This document shows, piece after piece, positions 26,360 through 47,104 of a DNA stretch of 64,000 nucleotides. Numbering within the stretch: the first letter of the stretch is position 1; every line of letters starts with the position of its first letter. The position numbers were made by a program, and so were the translations under genes. Below the pieces are notes generated by a model. The model had not been told where the DNA came from. It was given only the letters and a program-made list of their open reading frames with translations, and made no database searches. Origin of the DNA: Myxococcota bacterium (GTDB lineage: Bacteria; Myxococcota_A; UBA9160; PR03); contig JBFIML010000002.1 in NCBI GenBank assembly GCA_041611735.1, forward strand, positions 1 to 64,000. The letters are read 5' to 3'.

Positions 26360-27745
26360 CTAGAGCGTCTTCAGGGCCTCGATGATCTTGAGGACCGTCT
26401 CCTTGGCGTCGCCGAACACCATCATGGTGTTGTCCAGATAGAAGAGCGGGTTGTCGATCCCGGCGAAGCCGGGGTTCAGGCTGCGCTTGATCACCATTAC
26501 CTGCCGGGCCCGGTCCACGTCGAGGATGGGCATGCCGTAGATGGGGCTGCCCGGATCGCTGCGGGCGGCGGGGTTCACCACGTCGTTGGCCCCGAGCACC
26601 AGCACCACGTCCGTCTCGGGGAACTGCGGGTTGATCTGCTCCATCTCCACGAGCTTGTCGTAGGAGACGTCCGCTTCGGCGAGGAGCACGTTCATGTGGC
26701 CCGGCATGCGTCCGGCCACCGGGTGGATCGCGTACTGGACCTTGCAGCCCCGCTTCTCGAGCAGGTCGCCGAGCTGTCGGGTGGCGTGCTGGGCCTGGGC
26801 CACGGCGAGCCCATAGCCCGGCACCACGATCGCCGAGCGCGCCGAGGAGAGGATCACCCCCGCGTCCTCGGCGGTGTAGGCCTTGACGGCGCGCCCTTCG
26901 ACCGCCGCCCCCACCCCTGCCGTCACCTTGCCGAAGGCGCCGAAGAGCACGTTGGTGAGCGGGCGGTTCATGGCGTCGCACATGAGCTTGGTGAGGATGA
27001 TGCCCGCCGCGCCCACCAGGGAGCCGCTGATCACGAGGCCGCTGTTTCCGAGCACGAACCCCGTGGCGCAGGCCGCGAGCCCGGAGTACGAGTTCAGCAG
27101 CGAGATCACCACCGGCATGTCGGCGCCACCGATCGGGATCACGAGCAGGACGCCGAGCGCCAGCGAGAGCGCCACGAGACCCGCGTAGGCATCCAGGGCG
27201 GTCGGATCCACCGCCACCGCCACCCCGAGCCCGAGGGACGCCAGCCCGAACACCGCATTGCTGGTGCGCTGGAGCGGGTAGGTGATCGGCGCCCCGCGCA
27301 TCATTTCCTGGAGCTTGGCAAAGGCCACCAGGCTGCCCGTGAAGGTCAGGCCGCCGATCAGGGCGCCGAGCACGATGGCCACCGAGACCAGCTCGGTGGG
27401 CGACTCGCCTTCCCGCACGTAGCGCAGCAGCTCCGCCGAGGCGACCAGCGCCGAGGCGCCTCCGCCGAAGCCGTTGAGCAGCGCCACCATCTGCGGCATG
27501 GCGGTCATCTGGATGCGCAGGGCGAGCACGGTGCCGATCGCCGCCCCCACCACGATGCCGGCCAGCACGACGGTGTAGCTCACCACGTCGCGAGCGAGCA
27601 GGGTGGCCACCACGGCAATGGCCATGCCGACCGCCGCCATCCCGTTGCCGAGCGGGGCGGTGCGCGGCGACGCCAGGTTGCGGATTCCCAGGATGAAGAG
27701 GACCGCGGCGAACAGGTACGCGATCGGCAGCCAGGAGTCGCTCAC
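26360..27745 (-). CDS. pntB: NAD(P) transhydrogenase subunit beta
   Basis: IGGADMPVVISLLNSYSG, PGYGLAVAQAQH, HPVAGRMPGHMNV, GANDVVNP. Confidence 0.96.
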   Translation of the reverse strand: MSDSWLPIAYLFAAVLFILGIRNLASPRTAPLGNGMAAVGMAIAVVATLLARDVVSYTVVLAGIVVGAAIGTVLALRIQMTAMPQMVALLNGFGGGASALVASAELLRYVREGESPTELVSVAIVLGALIGGLTFTGSLVAFAKLQEMMRGAPITYPLQRTSNAVFGLASLGLGVAVAVDPTALDAYAGLVALSLALGVLLVIPIGGADMPVVISLLNSYSGLAACATGFVLGNSGLVISGSLVGAAGIILTKLMCDAMNRPLTNVLFGAFGKVTAGVGAAVEGRAVKAYTAEDAGVILSSARSAIVVPGYGLAVAQAQHATRQLGDLLEKRGCKVQYAIHPVAGRMPGHMNVLLAEADVSYDKLVEMEQINPQFPETDVVLVLGANDVVNPAARSDPGSPIYGMPILDVDRARQVMVIKRSLNPGFAGIDNPLFYLDNTMMVFGDAKETVLKIIEALKTL

Positions 27746-28032
27746 GGGTCGCGCCTGCGCCTGAACATGCCGAGCATGCGATCCGTCACCAGGAAGCCGC
27801 CCACCACGTTGATGGTGGCGAAGACGATGGCCACGAAGCCGAGCCAGCTGCTCCAGGTCCGGTCGGCGTGGCCCGCCGCCAGGATGGCTCCCACGATGGT
27901 GATGCCGGAGATGGCGTTGGCCCCGGACATGAGCGGCGTGTGCAGGAGCGGCGGCACCTTCGCGATCACCTCGAAGCCCACGAACAGCGCCAGCACGAAG
28001 ATGGTGAGGGCGACGGTGGGATCCTCGAGCAT
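27742..28032 (-). CDS. pntA: NAD(P) transhydrogenase subunit alpha part 2
   Basis: LHTPLMSGANAISG, INVVGGFLVTDRML. Confidence 0.94.
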   Translation of the reverse strand: MLEDPTVALTIFVLALFVGFEVIAKVPPLLHTPLMSGANAISGITIVGAILAAGHADRTWSSWLGFVAIVFATINVVGGFLVTDRMLGMFRRRRDP

Positions 28033-29198
28033 CAGGCCGCTCCCCGGGCGTCGCCGTCCAGGCGGGCGCGTACCGCCTCGGCCACCACCTTGCCCTCGTG
28101 GCAGAGGAGCGTCCCGCGGGTGATCTCGTCCTCGAGATCCAGGTTCAGGAGCCCTTCCTTGAGCAGGTGCAGCAGGAGATTGGTCACGTTGCGCGCGTAG
28201 GTCTGGCTGGCGTGGAACGGAGCCTGGCTGGGCAGGTTGGTGGGGCCCAGGACCAGGACGCCGTCCTGGTGAACCGGCTGGTCGGCCACGGTCAGCGCAC
28301 AGTTGCCGCCCTGCTCCGCCGCCAGATCGACGATCACCGACCCCCGCCGCATGCCTCGCACCGCCTCCTCGTCGAACAGCAGCGGGGCCCGCCGCCCGGG
28401 CACCAGGGCGGTCGTGATCACCACGTCCGATGCGGCCGCCCGCTCGCGCATGAGCTCCCGCTGGCGCGCGTAGAACTCCTCGCTCTGGGCCCGGGCGTAG
28501 CCGCCGCGGTCCTCCGCATCGGCCGTCTCGAGGCTGAGCTCCACGAAGCGCGCCCCGAGGCTCTCCACCTGCTCGCGGACCACCGGGCGCAGGTCGTAGG
28601 CCTCGACCACCGCGCCGAGCCGTCGGGCGGTGGCGATGGCCTGGAGGCCCGCGACCCCCGCGCCCACCACGAAGACGCGGGACGGCGAGATGGTGCCGGC
28701 CGCCGTCACGAGCATGGGGAACAGACGCGGCAGCGCGACGGCCGCCAGCAGCACCGCCCGGTAGCCGGCGATGGTGCTCTGGGAGGAGAGCGCGTCCATG
28801 GACTGGGCGCGCGTGATGCGGGGCAGAAGCTCGAGGGCCAGCACCGAGAGGCCCGCCCCCGCCAGACGCGTCGCGAGCTCGGGACGGTCCAGGGGCCGGA
28901 ACAGGCCGATCACCGCGGTCCCCCGACGCATGCCCGACGCGGCCGGATCCTGCGCCTCGAGCTCCCGGGGTGGCTGTACCGTGAGCAGGACGTCCGCCCC
29001 CGCGAACAGGGCAGCGCGGTCCGGCTCGATGCGGGCGCCCTCGCGCGCATAGGCGTCGTCGTCGAAACCCGCCGCGACGCCGGCTCCGGCCTCGACCGCG
29101 AACCCGACCTGGGTGCGCGTGAGGGCGCGCAGCGACTCGGGTACGAGCGCCACACGCCGCTCGCCGGATGCGCTCTCCTTCGGAACCCCCAGGATCAT
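28032..29198 (-). CDS. pntA: NAD(P) transhydrogenase subunit alpha part 1
   Basis: GVPKES..GERRVALVP, RITRAQSMDALSSQ, GAGVAGLQA, DLAAEQGGNC; start re-called. Confidence 0.94.
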   Translation of the reverse strand: MILGVPKESASGERRVALVPESLRALTRTQVGFAVEAGAGVAAGFDDDAYAREGARIEPDRAALFAGADVLLTVQPPRELEAQDPAASGMRRGTAVIGLFRPLDRPELATRLAGAGLSVLALELLPRITRAQSMDALSSQSTIAGYRAVLLAAVALPRLFPMLVTAAGTISPSRVFVVGAGVAGLQAIATARRLGAVVEAYDLRPVVREQVESLGARFVELSLETADAEDRGGYARAQSEEFYARQRELMRERAAASDVVITTALVPGRRAPLLFDEEAVRGMRRGSVIVDLAAEQGGNCALTVADQPVHQDGVLVLGPTNLPSQAPFHASQTYARNVTNLLLHLLKEGLLNLDLEDEITRGTLLCHEGKVVAEAVRARLDGDARGAA

Positions 29199-29310
29199 CA
29201 CCCCTCCCGGATCGTCACCCGGACCCTCACGTGGGCACCTCTGCCACGCTGAGCATAGGGCATGCACGGGAGCGCTTGCTAGACTGCGCTCGGCTTCGAG
29301 GAGGCCGACC

Positions 29311-30420
29311 GTGAGCAAGACCTCCCGCGTGATCCGCAAGACCAGCGGCCACTTCCTGGAGGACTTTCGTCCCGGGCAGACGCTGCGCCACAAGGGCGGC
29401 AAGACGGTGACCCCGGGGCTGTTCACCACCTTCACCGAGTTCTCCATGACCACCAATCCCCTGGCCAAGAATGCGCGCTACGCCCGCGCCCACGGCTTCC
29501 GGGGCCTGGTGTGCCCGCCGGGACTCGTCATGCTCGTGGCCTTCAGCCAGACCGTGGAGGACGTCTCCGAGAACGCGCGCGCAAACCTCGAGTACATCGA
29601 CATGCGCTTCGGCGCCCCGCTGTACGTGGACGACACGATCGAGGTGGAGACCAGGGTGCTGGGCGTGCGCGCCTCGAGCAGCCGCCCCAATCTCGGCATC
29701 GTCCACGTGCAGTCCACGGCCCGCAAGAACGTGGGCGCTCCGGACGAGGCGGTGGTGCTCACCTGGCAGCGCAAGGTCCAGGTCTGGAAGAAGGACGAAT
29801 CCGCCGCCCTGCACGAGGGCCAGCTGGAGCCGGACCCGGTGGACTGCCCGCTCTGGCTGCCCGACTACGACCCCGGGCGGGACTACAAGGCCCTGGCCCA
29901 CCTCTCCAGCCGCGACAGCTACTTCGAGGACCTCGAACCGGGCACCCGCATCGAGCACTCGCGGGGCCGGACCGTGACCGACGAGCACATCCACCTGACC
30001 GCGGTGCTCGACAACACGAGCCAGGTGCACTGCAACCAGTTCATGATCGATCTCGACCCGAATCAGTACGTGGGCGGCAAGCTGATCGTCTTCGGGGGCA
30101 TCCCTTTCGTGCTGTGTCTCGGCCTCTCCTGCCCCGACGTGGGAGACAATGCGCTGGTGGACCGCATCTACACCACGGGGCGGCACACCGCCCCGCTCTT
30201 CGCGGGCGACACGGTCTTTGCCGCCACGGAGATCCGTGGCAGGCGCGATTACCCGGGCCGGCCGGACCTCGGCATCGTCGAGACGCAGCTCTTCGGCCAC
30301 AAGTTCGACCGGGCCGAGGCCAGCGAGGTCTTCGAGGACGCCCCGCCGGGCTGGAAGAAGGTCGGGATCTTCGAGCTGGACCGCGAGCTCGTGGTGAAGC
30401 GCCGCAGCCACTACGCCTAG
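29311..30420 (+). CDS. mch: Double-MaoC dehydratase, probable mesaconyl-CoA hydratase
   Basis: Two hot-dog repeats (GHFLEDF..TVEDVSENARANL; YFEDL..IEH..NTSQVH..IVFGG); near ccr and mcl; GAGGAGG RBS before GTG. Confidence 0.75.
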   Translation: MSKTSRVIRKTSGHFLEDFRPGQTLRHKGGKTVTPGLFTTFTEFSMTTNPLAKNARYARAHGFRGLVCPPGLVMLVAFSQTVEDVSENARANLEYIDMRFGAPLYVDDTIEVETRVLGVRASSSRPNLGIVHVQSTARKNVGAPDEAVVLTWQRKVQVWKKDESAALHEGQLEPDPVDCPLWLPDYDPGRDYKALAHLSSRDSYFEDLEPGTRIEHSRGRTVTDEHIHLTAVLDNTSQVHCNQFMIDLDPNQYVGGKLIVFGGIPFVLCLGLSCPDVGDNALVDRIYTTGRHTAPLFAGDTVFAATEIRGRRDYPGRPDLGIVETQLFGHKFDRAEASEVFEDAPPGWKKVGIFELDRELVVKRRSHYA

Positions 30421-31871: not shown

Positions 31872-33212
31872 TCAGCTGCGGTAGAGCTGGATCTCGTCCA
31901 GGTGCCGCTCGCGCATCTCGGTGTCGAGGACGCCGAGCCCTTCGCGCTCCGCCAGACACAGGATCCCGATCTTTCCCTCGTGCTCGTTTCGGTGCACGGA
32001 GAGGGCCGCCCGTCCCGAGCCCTCCAGCGGGAAGGTCCGCGACAGGGTCGGATGGATCGAGCCCTTGCAGATCAGGCGGTTCGCCTCCCAGGCCTCCCGG
32101 TAGTTGGCGAAGTGCGAGCCCACGATCCGCTTGAGGCTCATCCACAGGTAGCGGTTGTCGTAGACGTGCTCGTAGCCCGTGGTGGAGGCGCAGGTCACGA
32201 CGAGGCCCCCCTTGCGCGCGACGAAGACGCTCGTCGCGAAGGTCTGGCGCCCCGGGTGCTCGTAGACGATGTCCGGGTCCTCGCCGCCGGTCAGCTCGCG
32301 GATGCGGGCCCCGAAGCGGCGCATCTCCTTCATGTTCATCCTGTCGCCGTCCCAGAACCGGTAGTCGTCGGCCTTGCGGTCGATCACCCGTTCGCAGCCG
32401 AGACGCCGGACGATGTCCACACGCTTCGGGCTCGAGACCACGCCCACCGGGAAGGCTCCCCCGTTGAGGGCGTACTGGGTGGCGTAGCCGCCGAGGCCCC
32501 CCGACGCGCCCCAGATCAGCACCACGTCGCCCTGCTTCATGGCGGCGCCGTTCCGGGAGACGAGCTGCCGGTAGGCGGTCGAGTTCACCAGGCCGTTGCA
32601 GGCCGACTCCTCCCAGGTCAGGTGCTCGGGCTTCGGCATGAGCTGGTTGGCCTTGACCAGCGCGATGTCCGCCATGCCGCCGAAGTTGGTCTCGAAGCCC
32701 CAGATCAGCTGGTAGGGATCGAGCATGGCGTCGCCGTAGCCGTCGGGCTCCTGCATCTCCACGTCGGCGCAATGGATCACCACCCGGTCGCCGGGCTTCC
32801 ACTTGGTGACGCCGGGACCCGTGCGCAGCACGACCCCGGAGGCGTCGCTCCCCTGGATGTGGTAGGGCAGGTCGTGGCGCTCCCAGAGCTCGCCGCGCCG
32901 GGCGTTGCGCTCCAGAAAGACGAACGTGGGCAGCGGCTCGAAGATCGACGTCCACACCGTGTTGAAGTTGATGGCGGAGGCCATGACGGCCACCAGCGCC
33001 TCGTTGGGCCCGAGCTCCGGGACCGGGACCTCGTCCACGTGCAGGGACTTGGTCGGGTCCTTCTCGGCGGAGGGCATGCCCTCGAACATGGCCGCCTCGT
33101 CCTTGTGGGTCGTGACGGCCCGCATGGTCTTCGGGAGCGGGATTCCCAGGATCTCGTCGGCGCCGGCGCGGGCCTCGATGGCCTGGACGATGGGCTTCAT
33201 GCGAGCAGACAT
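31872..33212 (-). CDS. ccr: Crotonyl-CoA carboxylase/reductase
   Basis: ASAINFNTVW, IWGFETNFGG, WGASGGLG, DNRYLWMSLKRIVGSHFAN; the Asn/Phe/Glu/His CO2-binding set is present. Confidence 0.95.
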   Translation of the reverse strand: MSARMKPIVQAIEARAGADEILGIPLPKTMRAVTTHKDEAAMFEGMPSAEKDPTKSLHVDEVPVPELGPNEALVAVMASAINFNTVWTSIFEPLPTFVFLERNARRGELWERHDLPYHIQGSDASGVVLRTGPGVTKWKPGDRVVIHCADVEMQEPDGYGDAMLDPYQLIWGFETNFGGMADIALVKANQLMPKPEHLTWEESACNGLVNSTAYRQLVSRNGAAMKQGDVVLIWGASGGLGGYATQYALNGGAFPVGVVSSPKRVDIVRRLGCERVIDRKADDYRFWDGDRMNMKEMRRFGARIRELTGGEDPDIVYEHPGRQTFATSVFVARKGGLVVTCASTTGYEHVYDNRYLWMSLKRIVGSHFANYREAWEANRLICKGSIHPTLSRTFPLEGSGRAALSVHRNEHEGKIGILCLAEREGLGVLDTEMRERHLDEIQLYRS

Positions 33213-33301
33213 GCGGGGACCTCCCTGACGCGGCCGGGACGGACGTTGGGCCGCTAGGGTACCCGCGTCCCCCGGCGCTCGCGAGAGGCTACGCTCCGCT
33301 C

Positions 33302-34099
33302 GTGCACCGACCTCTGGAGCTGCACCGCAGCGCCTTCCCGGGACGGCCGGCCTTCGACACGGCGGTCTCGCGGGCGCTGTTGTGGCGGGTGGCCGACGGC
33401 TCGCTGGCCGAGAGTCTGCGCCTGTATCGCCCGGACGACGTCCTGGCGTTCTCCGTGCAGGACCGCACGCGTCCCGGCTTCGCCCGGGCGGTGGAGGCCG
33501 CCCGCGCCCGGGGCTTCGCGCCGGTCCTGCGCCTGGCGGGCGGGCGGGCGGCCGTCTTTCACTCCGGGACCCTGGCCTTCGCCTGGAGCGCTCCGATCCG
33601 GGACGCCCGCCTCGGCATCCGGGAGCGCTTCGAGAGCATGGCGACCCTCGCCGCCGACGCGCTCCGGCGTCTCGGCGTGGACGCCCGGGTGGGGGAGGTG
33701 GCGGGCGAGTACTGCCCGGGCGCCTGGAGCGTGAATGCGCGGGGGCTCACGAAGCTTGTCGGTGTGGGCCAACGGCTGGTGCGCGGTGCGGCCCACGTCG
33801 GGGGCGTGGTGGTGGTGCGCGGGCACGAGCGGGTGCGCGCGGTGCTCGAGCCGGTCTACCGGGAGCTCGGCTTCGAGTTCGATCCCCGCACGGTCGGCAG
33901 CGTGGAGGCCGAGGTCGGCGACGTCACCCCCGAACACGTGACCGAGGCGCTGTTGGCGGAGTTCCGGCGCCGGACGACGGGCATCGTCGAAGCCGAGCTC
34001 GACGCCGAGACCCTCGCCCTCGCCGCGCGCCTCGAGGCGCAGCATCGGGCCACCGCTGCGCCGCCCGGCGTGCTTGCCCGCCTGCCGGAAACCGGTTAG
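33302..34099 (+). CDS. Lipoate-protein ligase/octanoyltransferase family (catalytic domain only)
   Basis: LRLAGGRAAVFH, GEYCPGAWSV, KLVGVGQR. Confidence 0.82.
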   Translation: MHRPLELHRSAFPGRPAFDTAVSRALLWRVADGSLAESLRLYRPDDVLAFSVQDRTRPGFARAVEAARARGFAPVLRLAGGRAAVFHSGTLAFAWSAPIRDARLGIRERFESMATLAADALRRLGVDARVGEVAGEYCPGAWSVNARGLTKLVGVGQRLVRGAAHVGGVVVVRGHERVRAVLEPVYRELGFEFDPRTVGSVEAEVGDVTPEHVTEALLAEFRRRTTGIVEAELDAETLALAARLEAQHRATAAPPGVLARLPETG

Positions 34100-34155
34100 C
34101 GTTCGCGGGTCTTCGCGCCGCCGCCCGCGCGCGCGGCCGCCCTGGGAAAGGGTCC

Positions 34156-35355
34156 ATGCGTTTCTACGAGTACGAATCGAAGGCGCTCTTCGACCGCCAC
34201 GGGCTTCCGCTCGGAAAGCGTGGCGTGGCCCGCACGCCGGAAGAGGCGCGCCGCATCGCCGCCAACCTCGGCGGCCCCGTGGTGCTCAAGAGTCAGGTGC
34301 TCTCCGGCGGGCGCATGAAGGCCGGCGCCGTGAAGTTCGCCGACACGCCCGACCAGGCCGCCCGTTGCTTCGACCAGATCCTGCCCATCCTCGTGAACGG
34401 GCAGAAGGCGCGCGCGGTGCTGGTCGAGCAGAAGAGCCCGGTGGCCCAGGAGTACTATGCGGGAGTCACGTGGGACGCGCGCGCCAAGCGCCCCGTCATC
34501 GTGTTCAGCGACATGGGCGGCATCGACGTGGAGGAGGTGGCCGAGAAGCACCCCCAACACGTTTCCAAGACCCACCTGTCCACGATCCTGCCCTTCACGC
34601 CGCGCGTGGCCAAGGAGGCCGTCGCGGCCACGGGGGTGACCGGCAACGAACTCAACCGGCTGACGCCGATCGTCGCCACGCTCGTCGAGATCTTCCTGCG
34701 CTACGACCTGACCCTCGCCGAGATCAACCCGCTTGCGCGTCTCGAGGACGGGCGCTTCGTGGTTCTCGACGGCCACGTGGACATGGAGGCGGAGGCGCGC
34801 GACAAGCACGCGAAGCTGCTCGAGGAGCTCGGCATCCGTCCCGAGGAGACCCGCCAGGCCCGGCCGCCCACGGAGTTCGAGATCCGCGGCGCGCAGGTGG
34901 ACCGCGTAGACCCCCGCGGCGTGGCGGGCAACGTGGTGGAGTTCGACGGGAACCTCGGCCTCGTGATCGGGGCCGGGGGGGGCTCCCTGACCCTCTTCGA
35001 TGCGGTGCGCAAGCACGGCGGGAAGCCTGCCAACTACTGCGAGATCGGCGGGAACCCGAGCGTCAAGAAGGCCTGTGAGCTCACCAAGCTGATCCTCTCC
35101 AAGCCGGGCGTGGAGAAGATCGCGGTGATGATGAACGTCGTGTCCAACACCCGCGTCGACATCGTGGCCCGCGGAGTGATCAAGGGCTGCGTGGAGTCCG
35201 GAAGGCACCCGAAGGACGTGATCGCCATCTTCCGCATCCCCGGCTCCTGGGAGGAGGAGGGCTCCAAGATCCTGCGCAAGTACGGCGTCGAGTATTGCGA
35301 CCGCAGCGTCTCCATGTACGACGCAGCGGGCCGCGCCGTCGCGAAGATGGGCTGA
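34156..35355 (+). CDS. Divergent succinate/malate-CoA ligase beta subunit (ATP-grasp)
   Basis: MRFYEYESK, VLKSQVLSGGRMKAGAV, GGIDVEEVA, AEINPL, ANYCEIGG; GAGGGSLTLFD replaces the canonical SucC GAGLAMATMD. Confidence 0.85.
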   Translation: MRFYEYESKALFDRHGLPLGKRGVARTPEEARRIAANLGGPVVLKSQVLSGGRMKAGAVKFADTPDQAARCFDQILPILVNGQKARAVLVEQKSPVAQEYYAGVTWDARAKRPVIVFSDMGGIDVEEVAEKHPQHVSKTHLSTILPFTPRVAKEAVAATGVTGNELNRLTPIVATLVEIFLRYDLTLAEINPLARLEDGRFVVLDGHVDMEAEARDKHAKLLEELGIRPEETRQARPPTEFEIRGAQVDRVDPRGVAGNVVEFDGNLGLVIGAGGGSLTLFDAVRKHGGKPANYCEIGGNPSVKKACELTKLILSKPGVEKIAVMMNVVSNTRVDIVARGVIKGCVESGRHPKDVIAIFRIPGSWEEEGSKILRKYGVEYCDRSVSMYDAAGRAVAKMG

Positions 35356-35380
35356 GGCGAGCCGGGGCACGAAGCAAGCC

Positions 35381-36286
35381 ATGTCGATCCTCATTCACAA
35401 GGACACGACCTTCATCGTCCAGGGCATCACCGGCCGCGAGGCCGTGAACCTGACCCGCGAGAATCTGGCCTACGGCGCCAGGATCGTGGGTGGCGTCACC
35501 CCGGGGCGGGCCGGTCGCGAGGTCTACGGCGTGCCGGTCCACGATTGCGTGCGCGACATCACGTCGCAGCGGAAGGTGGATGGCGCGGTGGTGAGCGTCC
35601 CGCCGAAATTCACGCGCGACGCGGTGTTCGAAGCGCTCGAGAACGGGATCCAGCTGATCGTGATCGTGACCGAGCGCATCCCGCGCCAGGAAGTGGCTCA
35701 GATGGTGGAGCTCGCGAAGCTGCGTGGCGCCCGCATCATCGGGCCGAACTGCCTCGGCATCATCTCCCCGGGCGAGGCGAAGATGGGCGGGATCGGTGGG
35801 CCGGCCGAGGACACCCGCAAGGCGTACAGCCAGGGCCCGGTGGGCGTCATGTCGCGCTCCGGCGGCATGACCACGGAGATCGCCAACACGTTGACCGCCG
35901 CCGGCCTCGGGCAATCCACTGCGGTGTCGATCGGCGGCGACGCCGTCATCGGCTCCACCTATGCGGAGCTCATGCCGCTCTTCGAGGCGGACAGCGAAAC
36001 CCAGGCGATCGCAATCTACTCCGAGCCAGGGGGGCGCATGGAGGCGGAGCTGGCCGAGTGGGTGCAGGAGAACCGGTCGCGGCTCCCGATCGTGGCCTTC
36101 ATGGCCGGCCGCTTCATGGACGAGATGCCGGGGATGCGCTTCGGACACGCCGGCACCATCGTAGAAGGCAAGGCGGATACCACCGCCGAGAAGATCGCCC
36201 GGCTGCACAAGGCTGGCATCGCCGTCGCGGAGCGCATCGAGGAGATCCCGGCGCTCATCCGCGAGCGGCTCGGAGAGGCGCACTAG
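35381..36286 (+). CDS. Succinate/malate-CoA ligase alpha subunit
   Basis: VQGITG, IIGPNCLGIISPG, SRSGGMTTE, SIGGD, RFGHAG (phospho-His). Confidence 0.9.
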   Translation: MSILIHKDTTFIVQGITGREAVNLTRENLAYGARIVGGVTPGRAGREVYGVPVHDCVRDITSQRKVDGAVVSVPPKFTRDAVFEALENGIQLIVIVTERIPRQEVAQMVELAKLRGARIIGPNCLGIISPGEAKMGGIGGPAEDTRKAYSQGPVGVMSRSGGMTTEIANTLTAAGLGQSTAVSIGGDAVIGSTYAELMPLFEADSETQAIAIYSEPGGRMEAELAEWVQENRSRLPIVAFMAGRFMDEMPGMRFGHAGTIVEGKADTTAEKIARLHKAGIAVAERIEEIPALIRERLGEAH

Positions 36287-36290
36287 TCCC

Positions 36291-36515
36291 ATGCCCGGCA
36301 TGTTCATCGACGTCCGCGTGGATCCCCGGGTCGCCAAGGACCCGGCCGTGGCCCGGAAGCTCACGGAGGTGTGCCCGGTGGCCATCTTCGCCCAGCGCGA
36401 GGATGGCTCGCTGCGCGTCGTCGAGGAGAACCTCGACGAATGCGTGTTGTGCGACCTCTGCACCGAGGCCGCCCCCTCCGGCAGCGTCCGGATCGTCAGA
36501 CTGTACGAGGAGTAG
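36291..36515 (+). CDS. Small 4Fe-4S ferredoxin
   Basis: EVCP plus CVLCDLC; fills the gap between ligase alpha and lyase. Confidence 0.82.
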
Positions 36516-36520
36516 ACGCC

Positions 36521-37597
36521 ATGCGTCCCGCCAAGGATTTCTTCCGGCCCCTGGCCATCGGCGCGCCCGAGCCGGTCCGCGAGATTCCCGTCCGGCCCTC
36601 GCGGATGATCCACTTCTTCGACCCGAGCAACCCGAAGATGGCGGCCAAGGTCCCGGAGCTGGCGCCCCGCTGCGACGTGCTGCTCGGGAACCTGGAAGAC
36701 GCCATCCAGGCCGACCGCAAGGTGGAGGCCCGCGAAGGGCTGATCAAGATCGCCCGCAACACCGAGTTCGGCGATTGCCAGCTCTGGACGCGGGTGAACA
36801 GCCTGGACAGCCCCTGGGCCCACGACGACCTGGTCCGGCTCGTCACCGAGATCGGGGACAAGCTCGAGGTGATCATGATCCCCAAGGTGGAGGGTCCCTG
36901 GGACATCCACTACGTGGACCGGATCGTGGCCCAGCTCGAAGCCAAGGCGGGGCTGCGTCGGCCGCTGCTGCTGCACGCCATCCTCGAGACGCACCTGGGC
37001 GTGGTCAACGTGGAAGCCATCTGCGGGGCGAGCCCCCGCATGCAGGGCCTCTCCTTCGGACCGGCGGACCTGGCCGCTTCGCGGCGCATGAAGACCACGC
37101 GCGTGGGGGGCGGGCATCCCGGCTATCTGGTGCGCACGGATCCGGACCCCGAGAACCCCGACGCAGCGCGCATCACCGCCCAGCAGGATCCCTGGCACTA
37201 CACGCTGGCCCGCATGGTGGACGCCTGCACCGCCCACGGCTGCCTGCCCTACTACGGGCCCTTCGGCGACATCCGGGACACCCTCGCCTGCCAGGACCAG
37301 TTCCGCGCCGCCTTCCTGCTCGGCTGCGTGGGAGCCTGGTCGCTGCACCCGGCCCAGATCGAGATCGCCCGCAAGGTGTTCAGCCCGCCGGTGGAGGAGG
37401 TGCTGTGGGCGAAGCGCGTGATCGCGGAGATGGGCGAGGGCAGCGGCGTCGTGATGATCGACGGGAAGATGCAGGACGACGCCACCTACAAGCAGTGCAA
37501 GGTGATGGTGAACTACGCCAAGCTCATCGCCCGCAAGGACCCGGAGCTGGCCGAGCAGTACGGCTTCTCCGCCCAGGACCTGGCGGACCGAAGCTAG
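36521..37597 (+). CDS. mcl: Malyl-CoA/beta-methylmalyl-CoA lyase, Chloroflexus type
   Basis: [60 protein letters not shown] match remembered C. aurantiacus Mcl motifs. Confidence 0.9.
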
Positions 37598-37648
37598 GCG
37601 GCCGCGCCGCGTGCCCTGGGGACGCGGGGTCTCGGCCTCCTCCTCGCA

Positions 37649-38605
37649 CTAGGAGGAGAGCTCGAGCATGCGCTCGAGGGGCCGCAGCGCCCGCACCCGG
37701 ATCGCCTCGGGCACGGTGACCTCGGGCGCCAGGTCCCGCAGGCAGAGGTAGAGCTTCTCGAGGGTGTTGAGCCGCATGTAGGGACAACGGTTGCAGGCGC
37801 AGCTCTCGTCCAACCCTGGCGCCTGGATCAGCGTCTTCTTCGGCACGCGCTTCTGGATCTGGTGGAAGACGCCGTCCTCGGTGGCGATGATGAGCGTCTG
37901 GGCCGGCGAGGCCACGGCCCGCTCGATGATCCCCTTGGTGGAGCCGATGAAATCGGCCTGGTCCAGCACCGCCTCGTCGCATTCGGGGTGGGCGAGCACC
38001 TCCGCGTCCGGGTGCTTGACGCGAAGCTGGGTCAGGGCCTTCGCGTTGAACTGCTCGTGCACGATGCAGGTCCCGGGCCAGATGATGAGGTCCGGACGCT
38101 TGGCCTGCTTCGCCACCCAGCGCCCGAGATGACGATCCGGCGCGAAGATCACCGGTCGGTCGGCGAAGTGGGACACGATCTCCGCCGCGTTCGACGAGGT
38201 GCAGATCACGTCGGAGAGCGCCTTCACCTCGGCGGAGGTGTTGATGTAGCTCACCACCACGGCACCCGGGTGCTCGTCGATGAACTTCTGGAAATCCCCG
38301 GCCGGACACCCGTCGGCCAGGGAGCAGCCCGCCTCCAGGTCCGGCACCACCACCGTCCGCTCCGGGTTCAGGATCTTCGCGGTCTCGGCCATGAAGTGGA
38401 CCCCGCAGAAGGCGATCACGTCGCGCTCCACCTTCTGGGCCGTGCGCGCGAGCGCGAGCGAGTCGCCCACCACGTCCGCCAGGTCCTGGACCTCGGACTC
38501 CTGGTAGTAGTGGGCCAGCAGGATCGCGTTGCGCTCCTCCTTCAGCTGGAGGATCGCCTCCTCGAGATCCGCCGGGAACGTCTGGCGGAGCGGTGCGGCC
38601 GTCAT
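37649..38605 (-). CDS. nadA: Quinolinate synthase
   Basis: LAHYYQ, FCGVHFMAETAKIL, AGCSLA, ICTSSNA, AHPEC, CPYMRLNTL. Confidence 0.96.
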   Translation of the reverse strand: MTAAPLRQTFPADLEEAILQLKEERNAILLAHYYQESEVQDLADVVGDSLALARTAQKVERDVIAFCGVHFMAETAKILNPERTVVVPDLEAGCSLADGCPAGDFQKFIDEHPGAVVVSYINTSAEVKALSDVICTSSNAAEIVSHFADRPVIFAPDRHLGRWVAKQAKRPDLIIWPGTCIVHEQFNAKALTQLRVKHPDAEVLAHPECDEAVLDQADFIGSTKGIIERAVASPAQTLIIATEDGVFHQIQKRVPKKTLIQAPGLDESCACNRCPYMRLNTLEKLYLCLRDLAPEVTVPEAIRVRALRPLERMLELSS

Positions 38606-38723
38606 CGCCTGGCCGGTGCAACCTCCTGCGCTTGGAGAAAAAAGAATAAGCATGAGGACTTGGAAGACAAGGGCAGGCTCGGGCCCCGGACCCCGGCGCT
38701 GTAGAGCCGCTCCCGGCCCGGAG

Positions 38724-38739
38724 GGGAAAACCCTTTCCC
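38724..38739. promoter_or_regulatory. Inverted repeat, candidate enhancer (UAS) for a sigma-54 activator
   Basis: GGGAAA-ACCC-TTTCCC about 120 bp upstream of the -24 element. Confidence 0.35.
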
Positions 38740-38805
38740 AATCGGCGGAATGGCCGTTCCGAGACGTCGCGTTTCCCAGGCCGCCGGGAGGCGACCGCGA
38801 GGAGC

Positions 38806-38872: not shown

Positions 38873-38994
38873 TCGGGTTTGCCACGGGAAGGGATGCGCC
38901 TTGCATCTCGAGGGCCGGTCCGCCCCTTCCCAGGGTGAACCGGCGCCTTGTTCGGATGGCGGCCAGAGGAAGCAGCGGCCGGAGGAAGCAGCCG

Positions 38995-39927
38995 ATGGCG
39001 GGCGGAGTCGGAATCGGGATGGCCAGTCTCGCGCCGGGAGCGCGGATCGCGGCGGCCCTCGGCCTGGTGGGCGCTCTCGTGCTGCTGGGCGCCCCCGCCC
39101 AGGCGGTCTTCCTGGGCCTCCAGCCGGGCGACACCATCGACAGCATCGGCTACACGATCGATCCGGGTGCAGGCGCCTTCGCGGATGCCGCGGATACCCT
39201 CGACATCGACGCCCAGGCCGACAACATCGACGTGGGCACGGGCGTCCGCACCGAGATCAGTGGCGGCGCCATCGCGGTCAACCTGAACCTGGCTTCCGAG
39301 TCCCTGCTCTTCCTGGGCGACGGGGGCACGGGCGGCCTGACCTTCATCTACGAGTACACCGCCAGCTTCGCCGGGCGCGCCGGCGTCGATGACGTCGCCC
39401 TCTACGCCCCGACGGGCGGTCCGGCCCCGGAGCAGGACGGCCGCCTGCTGATCCGCGGCGAGTTCGTGTCCGACCCGACGGCCGAGGTGAGCGTGTTCTT
39501 CGACACGGCGGGACTGCTGGGCCCGCCGAGCCTGACCATCACCGGCACCTTCGACGTGCAGGCGGGCGGCGACCCGATCTTCGAGAGCGCGTTCGGAAGC
39601 CAGGGTGACCTGGCCGACATCATCGGGATCAGCTCCTCGAGCAGCCCGTCGCTCGTCGCGCTGCTGGCCGACGGCTACCTCTTCTCGGTGCGCGACACGG
39701 ACCTCGGAGCCTCGGGCTGTGGCTCGCAGGCGGCGGGAACGCCGTGCGTCGGAAACGTCGTGAACCAGACCGGCGGCTTCACCTTCTCCGGCAACGGGGA
39801 GATCGTGCCCCAGAATCCGTCGGCGTTCGTGCCGGAGCCGAGCACTGCCGCCCTGCTCGCACTCGGATTGGCGGGCCTCGCCCGGGGAGGCCGCGCGCGG
39901 CATCGGCGCTCAGGGGCGCGGGGATGA
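38995..39927 (+). CDS. PEP-CTERM sorting domain protein
   Basis: Signal peptide ending AQA; acidic Gly/Thr-rich body; VPEPSTAALLALGLAGLA + basic tail; alternative ATG 39019. Confidence 0.9.
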   Translation: MAGGVGIGMASLAPGARIAAALGLVGALVLLGAPAQAVFLGLQPGDTIDSIGYTIDPGAGAFADAADTLDIDAQADNIDVGTGVRTEISGGAIAVNLNLASESLLFLGDGGTGGLTFIYEYTASFAGRAGVDDVALYAPTGGPAPEQDGRLLIRGEFVSDPTAEVSVFFDTAGLLGPPSLTITGTFDVQAGGDPIFESAFGSQGDLADIIGISSSSSPSLVALLADGYLFSVRDTDLGASGCGSQAAGTPCVGNVVNQTGGFTFSGNGEIVPQNPSAFVPEPSTAALLALGLAGLARGGRARHRRSGARG

Positions 39928-39957
39928 ATCAACTGGATTCCGGAGGGGGGTCCTAGC

Positions 39958-40656
39958 ATGGCATGCGCGAAGCGATTGCTGATGGCGACGTTGTTGTTGA
40001 CGTTGCCGGTGACGGCCGGCGCCACTTCGTTCGAGCTGATCACGGCGACGGATCCGAAGGCCCGCTTCACCGTGAGCAACGGCGTCGTCACCTCGCTCGA
40101 GGCGGGCGGCAGCGACGCGGTGGTCCTGCCGGGGACCTCGCTGGGCGGCAACGCCCGGCTCCACATCGAGCTCCAGAAGTCGGGAGCGGAGACCCAGTTC
40201 GTCGTGGGGACTCCGTTTGCGGGCACCCCGGACGGCGTTCCGGACCTCTGGATCGTGGATTCGGTGACCTCCCAGGTGCTGATCACCGCGCAGCTGAACT
40301 CGATCAAGGTGAGCGGCTACACGGGCGGCGCCGCCGGCTCGGCCCTCACGTCGGTGACGTTCGGCGGCCTCGACCCCTTGCAGAGCGACCTGACCCTGAC
40401 CGGCGGGTCCCGGGCCGGCAGCTTCGGCGGCGTCGGGGCCAAGGCGGAGCTCTCGATCCTGCTCAACAAGCCGACCGTCGCCTTCCCCACCACCTTGCAG
40501 CTGTTCTCGGGCGCGGATCTCTTCGACGAGAACTTCGACGCCCAGATGAATGTGCAGCTCCAGTTCCACACCCCGGAGCCGGGCTCCCTGGCCCTGGTCG
40601 GGCTGCCCCTGATCGGTCTCGCGGCCTGGAGAGGCGCGCGTCGGCGTCGCGCCTAG
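39958..40656 (+). CDS. PEP-CTERM sorting domain protein
   Basis: Signal peptide; TPEPGSLALVGLPLIGLAAW + RRRRA. Confidence 0.9.
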   Translation: MACAKRLLMATLLLTLPVTAGATSFELITATDPKARFTVSNGVVTSLEAGGSDAVVLPGTSLGGNARLHIELQKSGAETQFVVGTPFAGTPDGVPDLWIVDSVTSQVLITAQLNSIKVSGYTGGAAGSALTSVTFGGLDPLQSDLTLTGGSRAGSFGGVGAKAELSILLNKPTVAFPTTLQLFSGADLFDENFDAQMNVQLQFHTPEPGSLALVGLPLIGLAAWRGARRRRA

Positions 40657-40738
40657 CCGCCTGCGCTCCGGCCCCTCGCCCCCGCGTTCGCCCGGCTCGG
40701 GGTATGCTGAGCCCACGACGCCGCCGTCCGGAATCCGT

Positions 40739-42520
40739 GTGTGCATCCTCCTCCTGGTGGCCGGGCTCCTCGTCCCGGCTTCCGGCGCGGCCCAGCTCCT
40801 GACGGGCGATCTCAACGGCGACGGGGAGGTGGACGCAGCCGACGCCGCGCTGCTCCCGGCCTGGTACGGCGCCGCTCCGGGAGACCCGACCTTCGAGCCG
40901 GCCGCGGACCTGAACGGCGACGGGCGCATCGACTTTCTGGACCTCGGTCTGTTCGGGGCTGGCTTCGGGGCCACCGGCGGGCCCGTGGACACGACGCCCC
41001 CGACCCTGTTCGTGACGCTGAACGACGTCCCCGACGACATGAACGACCTGCTCGTGGTGCCCCCGGAGCGCTTCCAGGTCACCCTGGCACTCGACAGCGC
41101 CGGGGGAAGTGCCCTCGACACGGCCTCCCTCTCGGTGACGAGCGACCAGGCCGCGGGGATCCACCCGGCCGGCGCCGAGCTGGCCGGAGAGTTCACGGTG
41201 ACCCCCACCCGGGCGGCGTGGGAGCTGCCCGCCGGGAGCAACCTGCCCCGCACGTCGCACTTCCTCACGGTGTCGGTACGGGACCTGGCAGGCAACCTGG
41301 CCTCCCGGGTGTACGGCTTCGCGGTGCGCGACTTCGCGGCGGGAGCGCCGCTCGAAAACCTCCAGACCGTCTTCCTGGACTTCGACCAGAACCGCAGCCT
41401 GACCACCGCGGTGGACTTCCTGGAGGACCTGCGCGAGTACGGCCTCTCCGCCGCGGCGGCGCCGACCATCGAGACGCAGATGCGCGACCGGCTCGTCGCC
41501 GAGATCGTCTCCCGCGCGCATCCCTTCTTCGGAGTCAACCCGGACGGGACGCCCGGTCCGGACGCGGCGAACCTGGTGTTCCAGGCCACCCTGCCCGGCG
41601 TCCCGCACTCGCGCCTCTGCGTGGGCGGGCAGTCCTCCCTGGGCGGCTCCTTCCTGGGCTCCTCGACCCTGGACGTGAACAACCTGAACGAGACCTCCGA
41701 CGAGTGCGCGCTCGGTTCCGTGTTCGGGGTGTTCCCCCAGGCGATCGACAACCTGTGGGGCGCCAACGCCGGCTTCCAGGCGACCTTCGGCCCCCTGGAT
41801 CCCGACGCAGGCGGCACGCCGGTGGGCCTCCACCCGCTCGACGCGACGGTCCTGGCCCCCGGCTTCGATCCGGCCGGCGCCCCGTCCGCCCAGCTCGCCC
41901 GCTGGAGCGCGATCGAGAGCGCCGTGGACACCTTCGCCCAGATCGTGGCCACCGCGGTCGCCCACGAGACCGGCCATCTGCTGGGGCTGGTGGCCCACGG
42001 CCCCGCTCCCGGCGGCCTGTGGGGTGGGTCGACCGGCGGCAACAAGGATCACAACGTGACCCCGGGCGGAACGACCCCGGCCCCCAACTGGCTGATGAAC
42101 AGCGGGGGAAGCTTCACCTTCGAGGAGATCACGGCACGCGGGGGGGTCCCCCTCCCGGTGTTCCGCCCCCTCAACTGGGCCTATCTGCGCGATCGGGTCG
42201 TGCTCGACGCCTCGGTGACGGGGCTCTTCCCGGCCCCGACCCTGACCAGCGTGCAGCCCGCCTCGTTCTCCTTCGCGGGCGCGGGCTCCCAGCTCGTGAC
42301 CTTCCAGGGCACGAACTTCCTCGCCACCCCCGGCATCGAGCTGCTGACCGAGGGCGACCCCACGCCCAATCCCGTCCTGAGCGTGGCCTTCGTGAACTCG
42401 CAGACCGTCACCGGAATCGTCTTCTCGTTCCTGGCGCCGCCCGCCCTCTACGACGTCCGGCTGCGCAACCCGGACGGCCAGGAGGTGATCCTGGTGGGCG
42501 GACTCGAGATCCTGCCGTGA
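40739..42520 (+). CDS. Secreted dockerin-like + Ig-like + zinc metallopeptidase + IPT/TIG-like protein
   Basis: GDLNGDGEVDAAD...ADLNGDGRIDFLD duplicated Ca loops; HETGHLLGLVAH and downstream WLMN Met-turn-like; PTLTSVQP..VTFQGTNF..YDVRLRNPDG; start uncertain. Confidence 0.78.
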   Translation: MCILLLVAGLLVPASGAAQLLTGDLNGDGEVDAADAALLPAWYGAAPGDPTFEPAADLNGDGRIDFLDLGLFGAGFGATGGPVDTTPPTLFVTLNDVPDDMNDLLVVPPERFQVTLALDSAGGSALDTASLSVTSDQAAGIHPAGAELAGEFTVTPTRAAWELPAGSNLPRTSHFLTVSVRDLAGNLASRVYGFAVRDFAAGAPLENLQTVFLDFDQNRSLTTAVDFLEDLREYGLSAAAAPTIETQMRDRLVAEIVSRAHPFFGVNPDGTPGPDAANLVFQATLPGVPHSRLCVGGQSSLGGSFLGSSTLDVNNLNETSDECALGSVFGVFPQAIDNLWGANAGFQATFGPLDPDAGGTPVGLHPLDATVLAPGFDPAGAPSAQLARWSAIESAVDTFAQIVATAVAHETGHLLGLVAHGPAPGGLWGGSTGGNKDHNVTPGGTTPAPNWLMNSGGSFTFEEITARGGVPLPVFRPLNWAYLRDRVVLDASVTGLFPAPTLTSVQPASFSFAGAGSQLVTFQGTNFLATPGIELLTEGDPTPNPVLSVAFVNSQTVTGIVFSFLAPPALYDVRLRNPDGQEVILVGGLEILP

Positions 42521-44064: not shown

Positions 44065-44157
44065 GGACGCCGAGCGTAGCGGAGCCGCATCGGCGGGCCC
44101 GGTTTGCTCCGGGAGAACGGTTTGTGTAGGATTCGCGGGGACTTACGGAGGGACCTC

Positions 44158-46137: not shown

Positions 46138-47104
46138 CCTGGCCCGGCGCCTCCTGGCCCGGGAACGAGAGGCGGTGGCCGAGGCGCTGAACCTGGTCGA
46201 CGACCGGCGCCCGGAGCGCCGCGAAGCCGCCCTGGTGCTGCTCGACACCGTCGACCGCGAGGGTCCGCGTCCGGGCGCCCACCGCGTGGGTTTGACCGGC
46301 GCGCCCGGGGCGGGCAAGTCGACGCTCCTCGATGCGCTGGTGCGCCTGCTGCGCCGGCGCGGCGAGACGGTGGGGATCGTGGCGGTGGACCCGTCGAGCC
46401 GGGTCTCGGGCGGGGCGCTGCTCGGGGACCGCGTGCGCATGCGCTCCGGCGCGCGCGACCCCGGCGTGTTCGTGCGCTCCATGGCCGCTCGCGAGCGCCT
46501 GGGCGGGATCGCCGACGCCACCCGCGCCGGGGTGACCGTCCTGGCCGCGGTCTTCGACTGGGTCTTCGTGGAGACGGTTGGGGTAGGCCAGTCGGAGACC
46601 GACGTGACCGCGCTGGTGGATACGCTCGTCTTCGTGGCACAGCCCAACTCCGGCGACACGCTCCAGTTCATGAAGGCCGGGGTGCTGGAGCACCCGGACG
46701 TGTTCGTCGTGAACAAGGCGGACGCGGGGCCGGCGGCGGAGCGCACGGCCCACGAGCTCGAGGCGGGGCTCGGCCTGGGGCGGCGCACCACGGGAGGATG
46801 GAACGCCCCGGTGCTGCGCGCCTCGGCCCGGGACGGCCGCGGCATCGATGCCCTGCTGGAGGCCCTCGAGGCGCACCGGCGCCACCTCGAACAGGCGGGC
46901 CGGCTGGAGGAGCGGCGCCGCCGCGGGCGGGACGCCGGGGTGCGCGAGACCCTCGAGCGCCGTTACGGCAGCTACGGGATCGAGCGGGTCGGCGGCCCCG
47001 AGGGCCTGGCGGCGCGAATCGCTGCGGCGCCGCACGCCTCCCCCTACGCCCTGGTGCTCGGCCTCGGTCGGGAGATCGAGGACGCCCTGCGCAAGCCCCA
47101 CTGA
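46127..47104 (+). CDS. meaB: MeaB/ArgK GTPase metallochaperone
   Basis: GAPGAGKST, AVDPSS..GGALLGDRVRM, ETVGVGQSE, VNKAD; start CTG 46127 inferred (ORF track: GTG 46175). Confidence 0.9.
   Translation: MRPDLARRLLAREREAVAEALNLVDDRRPERREAALVLLDTVDREGPRPGAHRVGLTGAPGAGKSTLLDALVRLLRRRGETVGIVAVDPSSRVSGGALLGDRVRMRSGARDPGVFVRSMAARERLGGIADATRAGVTVLAAVFDWVFVETVGVGQSETDVTALVDTLVFVAQPNSGDTLQFMKAGVLEHPDVFVVNKADAGPAAERTAHELEAGLGLGRRTTGGWNAPVLRASARDGRGIDALLEALEAHRRHLEQAGRLEERRRRGRDAGVRETLERRYGSYGIERVGGPEGLAARIAAAPHASPYALVLGLGREIEDALRKPH

Follow-up and report, generated by a model that had tools for sequence, protein, structure and literature searches.

A four-gene operon in a Myxococcota bacterium encoding a putative malate-type CoA ligase, a four-cysteine iron-sulfur protein and a malyl-CoA lyase

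The stretch analyzed here, referred to as the window, comprises 64,000 nucleotides from a Myxococcota bacterium (contig JBFIML010000002.1, positions 1 to 64,000). Within it, four genes encode the two subunits of a coenzyme A (CoA) ligase, a small iron-sulfur (Fe-S) protein and a malyl-CoA lyase, separated by intergenic gaps of 25, 4 and 5 bp. The coordinates, the open state of all four reading frames and the gap lengths match those of a first-pass annotation of this DNA, and the four-gene observation is confirmed. The interpretation attached to it, a malate-type CoA ligase ending the ethylmalonyl-CoA pathway, is partly supported. The four genes are as follows.

34156-35355, + strand: ligB (399 amino acids), ATP-grasp beta subunit of a nucleoside diphosphate (NDP)-forming acid-CoA ligase, with a SucC-like N half and a CcsA-like C half
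35381-36286, + strand: ligA (301 amino acids), CoA-binding alpha subunit with a phosphohistidine loop
36291-36515, + strand: four-cysteine mini-ferredoxin (74 amino acids), proposed third ligase subunit
36521-37597, + strand: Mcl (358 amino acids), Chloroflexus-type (S)-malyl-CoA / beta-methylmalyl-CoA / (S)-citramalyl-CoA lyase by similarity

The window has a G+C content of about 70 to 72%, and a scan of positions 33000-38800 detected no promoter or terminator, a result that is uninformative at 70% G+C.

Both ligase subunits belong to the succinyl-CoA synthetase superfamily by Pfam (PF08442 at 171 bits for ligB; PF02629 and PF00549 for ligA), and their best whole-protein matches in NCBIfam and the PDB are SucC and SucD. 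Neither reached the curated cut-off for those enzymes, however, with ligB scoring 244.8 bits on the SucC equivalog NF001913 (cut-off 370) and ligA 286.2 bits on the SucD model NF004230 (cut-off 336). A separate canonical sucCD pair is present on contig C40 of the source genome and passes both cut-offs, with 566.4 bits for the beta subunit and 436.2 bits for the alpha subunit. LigB was also far below the MtkA equivalog NF010647 (160.2 bits; cut-off 604), a model on which the ordinary SucC of contig C40 scored 543.4 bits, and this disparity argues for an origin independent of MtkAB. By curated cut-offs the ligase is thus neither SucCD nor MtkAB, an outcome that favors the first-pass interpretation. 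A second, succinate-specific succinyl-CoA synthetase, serving for example succinyl-CoA derived from propionyl-CoA, would agree with the best whole-protein matches. We nevertheless regard such an enzyme as very improbable, given the sub-threshold scores of both subunits, the full canonical pair elsewhere in the genome, the replacement of the succinate-site loop by one resembling that of citryl-CoA synthetase (CCS), and the lack of a rationale for strict linkage to the Fe-S protein and Mcl.

The two halves of ligB have different closest solved relatives. Residues 1-224 matched Thermus SucC best (149 bits, compared to 72 for CcsA), while residues 225-399, the acid-binding half, matched CcsA of Hydrogenobacter thermophilus best (6HXQ_B, 97.3 bits, compared to at most 59 for SucC). 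The motifs RPPTExEI, DR.D.RG.AG, GGGS, IGGNP and ILSKPG are common to this half and H. thermophilus CcsA, and ligB has a weak match of 22.1 bits to the Citrate_bind family PF16114, under the cut-off of 26.8. LigA was closest in the PDB to Thermus SucD (244 bits, compared to 182 for CcsB). By these per-domain scores ligB is a putative mosaic of a SucC-like ATP-grasp half and a CCS-like acid-binding half; its initial description as a divergent SucC-like subunit holds for the former and not for the latter.

Comparisons among relatives rest on the best 80 related loci (numbered with the prefix L), which come from metagenome-assembled genomes labelled Myxococcota, Deltaproteobacteria, Binatia and a few others, and residue invariance was counted over 62 aligned homologues, with L035 left out. 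The motif GAGGGSLTLFD, which had been singled out in ligB, is present at residues 272-282 and invariant (62/62). At the aligned site Escherichia coli SucC (1CQI_B) has GAGLAMGTMD and H. thermophilus CcsA has GGGGSTVTIE, such that the canonical SucC loop is replaced. The phospho-His of the SucD-like subunit is intact, as had been noted: the GHAG loop lies at ligA 255-258, and H256 and E215 are invariant in all 62 homologues, as are K45, G51-G57 (GGRMKAG), E189, N191 and D205 of ligB. Judged from these residues, whose roles we take to be those of their E. coli succinyl-CoA synthetase counterparts, the catalytic apparatus appears intact.

A search with the C-domain of ligB was conducted against a library of 1.84 billion proteins. 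The 32 nearest full-length 50%-cluster representatives, which held no labelled outgroup, were all under the SucC and MtkA cut-offs, placing the ligase family in a sizeable uncharacterized part of the superfamily. Its relationship to MtkA and CcsA was judged by curated cut-offs and per-domain PDB scores rather than by a tree. Many homologues carry the JGI automatic name 'succinyl-CoA synthetase beta subunit/citryl-CoA synthetase large subunit'. A 429-residue protein with the length of CcsA (P0184) was considered as a CcsA and rejected, at 150 bits. Literature searches found no published characterization of the ligase, and for the citrate-contact residues of ACLY one review gave only inhibitor-docking contacts at the residues looked up, leaving no residue-level argument on substrate.

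The small protein encoded between ligA and Mcl had been called a one-cluster ferredoxin. Its four cysteines, C28 (followed by P29) and C51xxC54xxC57, are invariant in 62/62 homologues together with P62. No curated ferredoxin model was reached: there was no Pfam match at E≤0.001, and the NCBIfam matches were weak, sub-threshold ferredoxin-domain hits only (E 7e-5 to 8e-3). The nearest Atlas clusters are unnamed 73-78-residue proteins of '4Fe-4S ferredoxin-type' from Actinomycetota and Myxococcota, with no common Pfam family. The cysteine pattern expected of a one-cluster ferredoxin is therefore present, while assignment to a recognized ferredoxin family does not stand.

A ferredoxin has no role in the textbook pathway, as had been remarked, yet this one does not look like a bystander. 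Its gene is the most tightly linked of the set, lying directly 3' of ligA in all 62 testable loci, compared to 44 of 57 for Mcl after the Fe-S gene, and it is kept after ligA even in the operon of a genus designated g50, where ligB is only 51% identical. Such strict linkage argues for a dedicated partner. Structure prediction of a complex of ligB, ligA and the Fe-S protein gave ipSAE values of 0.74, 0.75 and 0.74, compared to 0.00 for the best of three controls, with a partner pLDDT of 88 and contacts agreeing at 96% or more. Among solved complexes 58 of 80 attain the mark of 0.74, as do 2 of 110 mismatched pairs, although these benchmark counts hold only roughly, as the run used its own alignments and a riding 4Fe-4S cluster. 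In the predicted interface, the CcsA-like half of ligB (residues 302-304, 333-346 and 368-376) faces the cluster loop of the Fe-S protein (residues 49-53), and two family-specific invariant cysteines of ligB, C295 and C345, fall in or beside the interface stretches. The model supports, and does not show, binding of the Fe-S protein to the C-domain of ligB.

We know of no described precedent for an obligatory Fe-S partner on an enzyme of the succinyl-CoA synthetase type, and such a partner points to redox control or complex formation. We infer that the protein is a third ligase subunit, structural or regulatory, rather than a free electron carrier; candidate roles are a structural element, a redox switch or a docking site for Mcl. 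As a separate observation, the source genome carries three 2-oxoacid:ferredoxin oxidoreductase-type genes, at C40:38707-39336, C29:34173-34847 and C25:36246-36890 (all on the - strand), from which it follows that ferredoxin-dependent metabolism exists in this organism. One of the three is separated from the canonical sucCD by about 2 kb.

The fourth gene had been annotated as malyl-CoA lyase, and this assignment was upheld. Mcl belongs to the CitE/HpcH family and scored 495 bits to 6KIN (Roseiflexus) and 494 bits to 4L7Z (Chloroflexus) over about 345 residues, compared to 205 bits to the Rhodobacter-type enzyme 4L9Y. The study by Zarzycki and Kerfeld (PMC3832036) names the Mg ligands of malyl-CoA lyases and the Glu, Asp and Arg that act in catalysis, lists the MCLC-specific Asn58 together with Glu60, Asp61, Arg92, Glu157, Asp184 and the lid Asp318, gives Glu in place of the lid Asp as the signature of a malyl-CoA thioesterase cluster, and reports that the Chloroflexus-type enzyme also cleaves (S)-citramalyl-CoA. 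Residues N57, E59, D60, R91, E156 and D183 of Mcl match these signature and catalytic positions, and its lid reads DGKMQDD (D319, D320), where equivalence to the lid Asp is by alignment only. By similarity the fourth gene product is thus assigned as a Chloroflexus-type malyl-CoA lyase, presumably trifunctional.

The identity of the lyase bears on whether the ligase is a true citryl-CoA synthetase, which with a CitE-family lyase would make up a two-enzyme ATP-citrate cleavage, for example in a ferredoxin-using reductive tricarboxylic acid (TCA) cycle. The closeness of the acid-binding half to CcsA, the weak PF16114 match, the JGI naming of homologues and the three oxidoreductase-type genes can all be cited for this. 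The lyase that partners CCS, namely CCL, is citrate-synthase-like, however, whereas the lyase here is not of that kind, has the MCLC-specific Asn and is closest to the malyl-CoA lyases. Together with the proximity of the ligB N-domain and of ligA to SucCD rather than CcsAB, and with the acetyl-CoA assimilation context described below, these features lead us to give a citrate enzyme very little credence.

Conservation of the operon, which had been put forward as a check, was evident across the related loci, where relatives were found at 75-89% identity in 546 of 599 matched stretches. LigA follows ligB directly in 69/78 testable loci, and Mcl follows the Fe-S gene directly in the 44 already mentioned and within 2.5 kb in a further 4; this order recurs far more often than chance would allow. 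A typical relative carries PntAB, a 387-residue reductase, Mch, ligB, ligA, the Fe-S gene, Mcl, NadA, Ecm and MeaB in one cluster, and the Mch-type gene is the immediate upstream neighbor of ligB in 13/73 loci and occupies another site of the locus in 28 others. LigB without an adjacent ligA occurs in 9/78 loci (none on the locus in 8, at 6.4 kb in 1), among them L041, L048, L051, L056, L061, L069, L078 and L080; in L041 ligA lies 6.4 kb downstream with unrelated genes between. The neighborhoods of L041, L048, L056 and L080 yielded no alternative partner and held unrelated genes. At L035:8212-10365, the ligA frame runs without a stop into the Mcl frame, with the Fe-S gene in another frame, which stems from either a frameshift in the assembly or a frame that is open by chance in GC-rich DNA.

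The source genome (G000; 4.1 Mb, 95% complete) was surveyed for the pathway to which the operon might belong. The following features lie in the window.

26360-29468, - strand: PntAB NAD(P) transhydrogenase
29311-30420, + strand: Mch-type double-hotdog hydratase (PF19315, 62.5 bits; 146 bits to 4E3E and 138 bits to 8HGN, 'beta-methylmalyl-CoA dehydratase')
31872-33212, - strand: Ccr, crotonyl-CoA carboxylase/reductase (TIGR01751, 575 bits, cut-off 378.55), two genes upstream of ligB
44104-46137, + strand: Ecm-type fused B12 acyl-CoA mutase (MM_CoA_mutase and B12-binding domains), ethylmalonyl-CoA mutase by context
46175-47104, + strand: MeaB-type mutase chaperone GTPase (TIGR00750, 270.9 bits, cut-off 240.75)

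The start of the hydratase was set at GTG 29311 from a homologue alignment and an upstream GGAGG, and the protein is the sole PF19315 match in the genome. The Ecm-type mutase scored 534 bits, under the 876 of the methylmalonyl-CoA mutase equivalog, and is without the first ~76 profile positions; its orthologues in further families of the phylum adjoin canonical Ccr. PntAB is conserved beside the cluster in L016, L034, L043 and L055, which fits a nearby NADPH-consuming reductive carboxylation. A candidate Mcd on contig C10 (567 residues) matched 8CIW, '(2S)-methylsuccinyl-CoA dehydrogenase', over its full length with 390 bits. The ethylmalonyl-CoA core of Ccr, Ecm, Mcd, Mch and Mcl is therefore present in the source genome, in a search that covered these five enzymes, and the pathway context originally suggested for the operon was corroborated.

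Enzymes that could otherwise complete this route were also sought. There was no match to malate synthase (PF01274) in the 95%-complete genome and only a weak partial match to the isocitrate-lyase family. Mcl is the sole PF03328 (CitE-family) match, and hence no Mcl2-type gene was found, in a survey that had other thioesterase families outside its scope. The absence of mcl2 and aceB that the first-pass annotation had asked about thus agrees with what was found. Fae, a marker of methylotrophy, was likewise not found, in a survey that left serine-cycle genes aside, and no mesaconyl-CoA C1-C4 transferase exceeded its cut-off (best 119 bits, compared to 725).

The lyase and hydratase also have some resemblance to Rip enzymes, as Mcl scored 113 bits to RipC and the hydratase 117.6 bits to the itaconyl-CoA hydratase RipB, under the cut-off. 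This resemblance, the cleavage of (S)-citramalyl-CoA by the Chloroflexus-type lyase, and the loci with the hydratase directly upstream of ligB are compatible with a ligase for a C5-dicarboxylate (citramalate, mesaconate, itaconate or methylmalate), in which hydratase and lyase would yield acetyl-CoA and pyruvate or propionyl-CoA and glyoxylate. A CoA-transferase that replaces the ligase in one relative (see below) also matches a succinyl-CoA:mesaconate CoA-transferase model. We consider a C5 substrate unlikely, as the sole Mch-type and sole CitE-type genes of the source genome are needed for the Ccr/Ecm/Mcd pathway, no mesaconyl-CoA C1-C4 transferase reached its cut-off, and the gene set co-varies over 49 genomes with Ecm and Ccr-type enzymes and not with a catabolic island.

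These 49 genomes were recognized in a sample of 251 from the phylum, each at least 80% complete, for which the co-occurrence counts are descriptive. The ligB C-domain query was bimodal, with 49 genomes matching at 64% identity or more and all other matches at about 30%. Malate synthase was found in 0/49 ligase genomes, compared to 92 of 251 overall, whereas an Ecm orthologue occurs in 47/49 and a CitE-family gene in 49/49, exactly one in 20 of them. Canonical Ccr is present in only 13/49, and this low count was at one stage taken as evidence against a link to the pathway, a position dropped once a distant Ccr-like enzyme was found in 39/49; every ligase genome has one or the other.

The Ccr-like enzyme is a reductase of about 387 residues in the MDR family, encoded beside the operon in most relatives and absent from the window (L055:3872-5032, L034:4396-5559 and L017:5376-6542, all on the - strand). 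It scored 66-81 bits on TIGR01751, and its best PDB matches are crotonyl-CoA reductases, making it only distant kin of Ccr. The enzyme occurs in 43 of the 251 sampled genomes, all in the class of the window, and its distribution almost complements that of canonical Ccr (only Ccr in G000, G242 and G051; both enzymes in G172, G082 and G232). It may represent a new clade of enoyl-CoA carboxylase/reductase, and the pathway of most relatives probably uses this unrecognized reductase.

Relatives that lack the ligase carry other genes at its position. In G222, an assembly of one contig, a class III CoA-transferase (L087:5135-6394, +) lies directly upstream of Mcl, where ligB, ligA and the Fe-S gene stand in relatives; its NCBIfam matches, to oxalate (201 bits), succinate-glutarate (199 bits) and mesaconate (163 bits) enzymes, are all under cut-off. 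In G051, a CitE-family gene with Glu for the lid Asp (L092:7670-8530, +) lies between Ccr and NadA. This gene and two others of thioesterase signature (L086:8823-9665, + and L088:7343-8224, +) are 26-30% identical to Mcl and have Asp for the MCLC Asn as well as Glu for the lid Asp. Because the CoA-transferase of G222 and the Mcl2-type gene of G051 replace the ligase in position, there appear to be three alternative ways, as far as the genes can be read, of removing CoA from malyl-CoA at the same genomic place: a ligase, a CoA-transferase and an Mcl2-type gene.

We propose that ligB, ligA and the Fe-S protein constitute a three-subunit, ADP-forming malate/malyl-CoA ligase which, with Mcl, closes an ethylmalonyl-CoA-type route, and that the ligase represents a clade of its own within the succinyl-/citryl-CoA synthetase superfamily; taken as a whole, we judge the proposal about evenly poised between right and wrong. 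Under this proposal, Mch would form beta-methylmalyl-CoA, which Mcl would split into glyoxylate and propionyl-CoA. Mcl would then condense glyoxylate with acetyl-CoA to malyl-CoA, and the ligase would convert malyl-CoA, ADP and Pi to malate, CoA and ATP via the ligA phosphohistidine. The thioester energy would be kept, unlike in Rhodobacter, where the thioesterase Mcl2 discards it. Citryl-CoA, citramalyl-CoA and malyl-CoA share a 3-hydroxy-3-carboxy-propanoyl-CoA skeleton, the group on the carbinol carbon being their sole difference. Like citrate, malate is a beta-hydroxy acid, one that lacks the additional carboxymethyl arm. A CCS-like acid site, an adjacent malyl-CoA lyase and this shared skeleton together fit malate as the substrate.

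The direction of the reaction is held less firmly than the substrate, with the ATP-conserving direction favored. By standard values, the malate synthase reaction yields about 44 kJ/mol, against a cost of about 30-32 kJ/mol for forming ATP, so that condensation coupled to ATP-forming thioester cleavage would stay exergonic, while the reverse direction depends on the removal of glyoxylate. The pathway of the source genome makes malyl-CoA and no other exit enzyme was found, which favors ATP conservation.

The same enzyme could instead run from malate, ATP and CoA to malyl-CoA and on to acetyl-CoA and glyoxylate, in a serine cycle or a malate-splitting route, and the pairing of MtkAB with Mcl in the serine cycle is a known precedent. 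A Binatota preprint describes mtkAB and mcl from the majority of genomes in the phylum and assigns them to the serine cycle, and Binatia are among the carriers of this operon. In five Binatia genomes, no MtkA exceeded the cut-off on the MtkA model, which found only proteins at the level of canonical SucC (470-542 bits) and the present ligase (164-180 bits). Coexistence of the ligase with an Mcl2-type gene in genus g50 also makes more sense if the two work in opposite directions. In the source genome, however, the operon stands in an ethylmalonyl-CoA set that produces malyl-CoA rather than needing it, neither malate synthase nor an Mcl2-type gene was found to close the pathway otherwise, and Fae was not detected in the survey described above. 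Consumption of malate is therefore improbable in our estimation, and synthesis of malate with conservation of ATP remains the reading we prefer.

Several observations weigh against that reading. Both (S)-malate as the substrate and the direction from malyl-CoA to malate are derived from genome context, and the survey for a competing thioesterase covered the CitE family. No explanation emerged for the presence of an Fe-S cluster on a ligase that forms ATP, and the sub-cut-off matches of the G222 CoA-transferase do not assign it to any substrate. The sampled genomes are kin, such that the co-occurrence counts overstate independence; more than one CitE-family match occurs in 29 of the 49 ligase genomes, and 40 sampled genomes have Ecm without the ligase, from which it follows that the pathway does not need the ligase. 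In genus g50, a single operon holds Mcl, the Mcl2-type CitE2, ligB, ligA and the Fe-S gene, in that order, while Mcl and CitE2 occur without any ligase in five of the sampled g50 genomes; in this genus the ligase has been added to the Mcl2-type gene and has not replaced it. The idea that the ligase stands in for a wasteful thioesterase accordingly fits the source genome, where no Mcl2-type gene was found, and does not extend to a general rule. Of the first-pass proposal of a malate (or methylmalate/citramalate)-CoA ligase recovering ATP or cleaving malate, context and conservation were strengthened, and substrate and direction are still a matter of inference.

Four known systems, and one based on CoA transfer, offer comparisons. 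CcsAB of H. thermophilus (6HXQ) is likewise a two-subunit phosphohistidine NDP-forming ligase, provides the closest solved relative of the acid-binding C-domain, and precedes an acetyl-CoA-releasing lyase in its pathway. It differs in that the ligB N half and ligA are nearer SucCD, the partner here is a CitE-family Mcl, a dedicated Fe-S protein is present, and the context is acetyl-CoA assimilation and not the reductive TCA cycle. MtkAB with Mcl in the Methylobacterium serine cycle shares the proposed reaction (malate + ATP + CoA = malyl-CoA + ADP + Pi) and an operon partnership with malyl-CoA lyase, but ligB is far from MtkA on the equivalog and the lyase is Chloroflexus-type, not Rhodobacter/Methylobacterium-type; to our knowledge, MtkAB has no Fe-S subunit. 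SucCD has the same architecture and catalytic residues and supplies the best whole-length matches, whereas here both subunits fall under its cut-offs, the acid-site loop is changed and a third subunit is proposed. The Mcl1 plus Mcl2 exit of Rhodobacter sphaeroides occupies the same pathway position, and ligase-less relatives carry an Mcl2-signature gene there; in the source genome the thioester would yield ATP instead of being hydrolyzed. A CoA-transfer system with Chloroflexus-type Mcl and Mch also includes an enzyme interconverting malate and malyl-CoA, comparable to the class III CoA-transferase at the ligase position in G222, but the chemistry here would be that of an ATP-dependent ligase, and no mesaconyl-CoA transferase equivalog exceeded its cut-off in the source genome. 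From its context, the ligase would best be described as a CCS-like malate-type CoA ligase with an Fe-S subunit in an ethylmalonyl-CoA-type pathway.

Other genes lie near the operon. The gene 56 bp upstream of ligB is the following.

33302-34099, + strand: LplA/LipB-like catalytic-domain protein (PF21948, 49 bits)

Its NCBIfam matches are far under their cut-offs, and among the 80 loci a homologue occupies the same position only in the closest one, L004; it is outside the conserved set. The stretch 3' of NadA (38935-42520, +) encodes a PEP-CTERM-like protein, an unassigned open reading frame and a 593-residue protein whose N-terminal domain is of dockerin type, which appear unrelated to the operon. 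Across the whole genome, the acyl-CoA dehydrogenase domain was matched 44 times, including twice in the window (~6133-7329, + and ~20154-21200, -), which suggests a fatty-acid- or lipid-degrading lifestyle.

More tentatively, the ligase, its Fe-S subunit and Mcl might work as a single machine, a redox-gated 'ATP-malate lyase/synthase' that arose independently as a counterpart of ATP-citrate lyase. In it the cluster, positioned against ligB C295 and C345, would switch the enzyme between ATP-conserving formation and ATP-driven cleavage of malate, or would dock the lyase and so channel malyl-CoA. Combined with the Ccr-like clade, such a machine would mark out a separate version of the ethylmalonyl-CoA pathway, spread widely among uncultured members of Myxococcota, Binatia and further phyla. 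We think this larger picture doubtful. The automatic names that join succinyl- and citryl-CoA synthetase can inflate counts of reductive TCA or serine-cycle markers in metagenome surveys. If the proposed function is correct, the ethylmalonyl-CoA pathway would gain an energy-conserving ending, unlike the textbook versions with a thioesterase or malate synthase, with its users forming a large group of marine, sediment and soil bacteria, most of them uncultured. The ligase would also be a second, independently evolved malate thiokinase, of relevance to synthetic carbon-conserving pathways that now rely on MtkAB.

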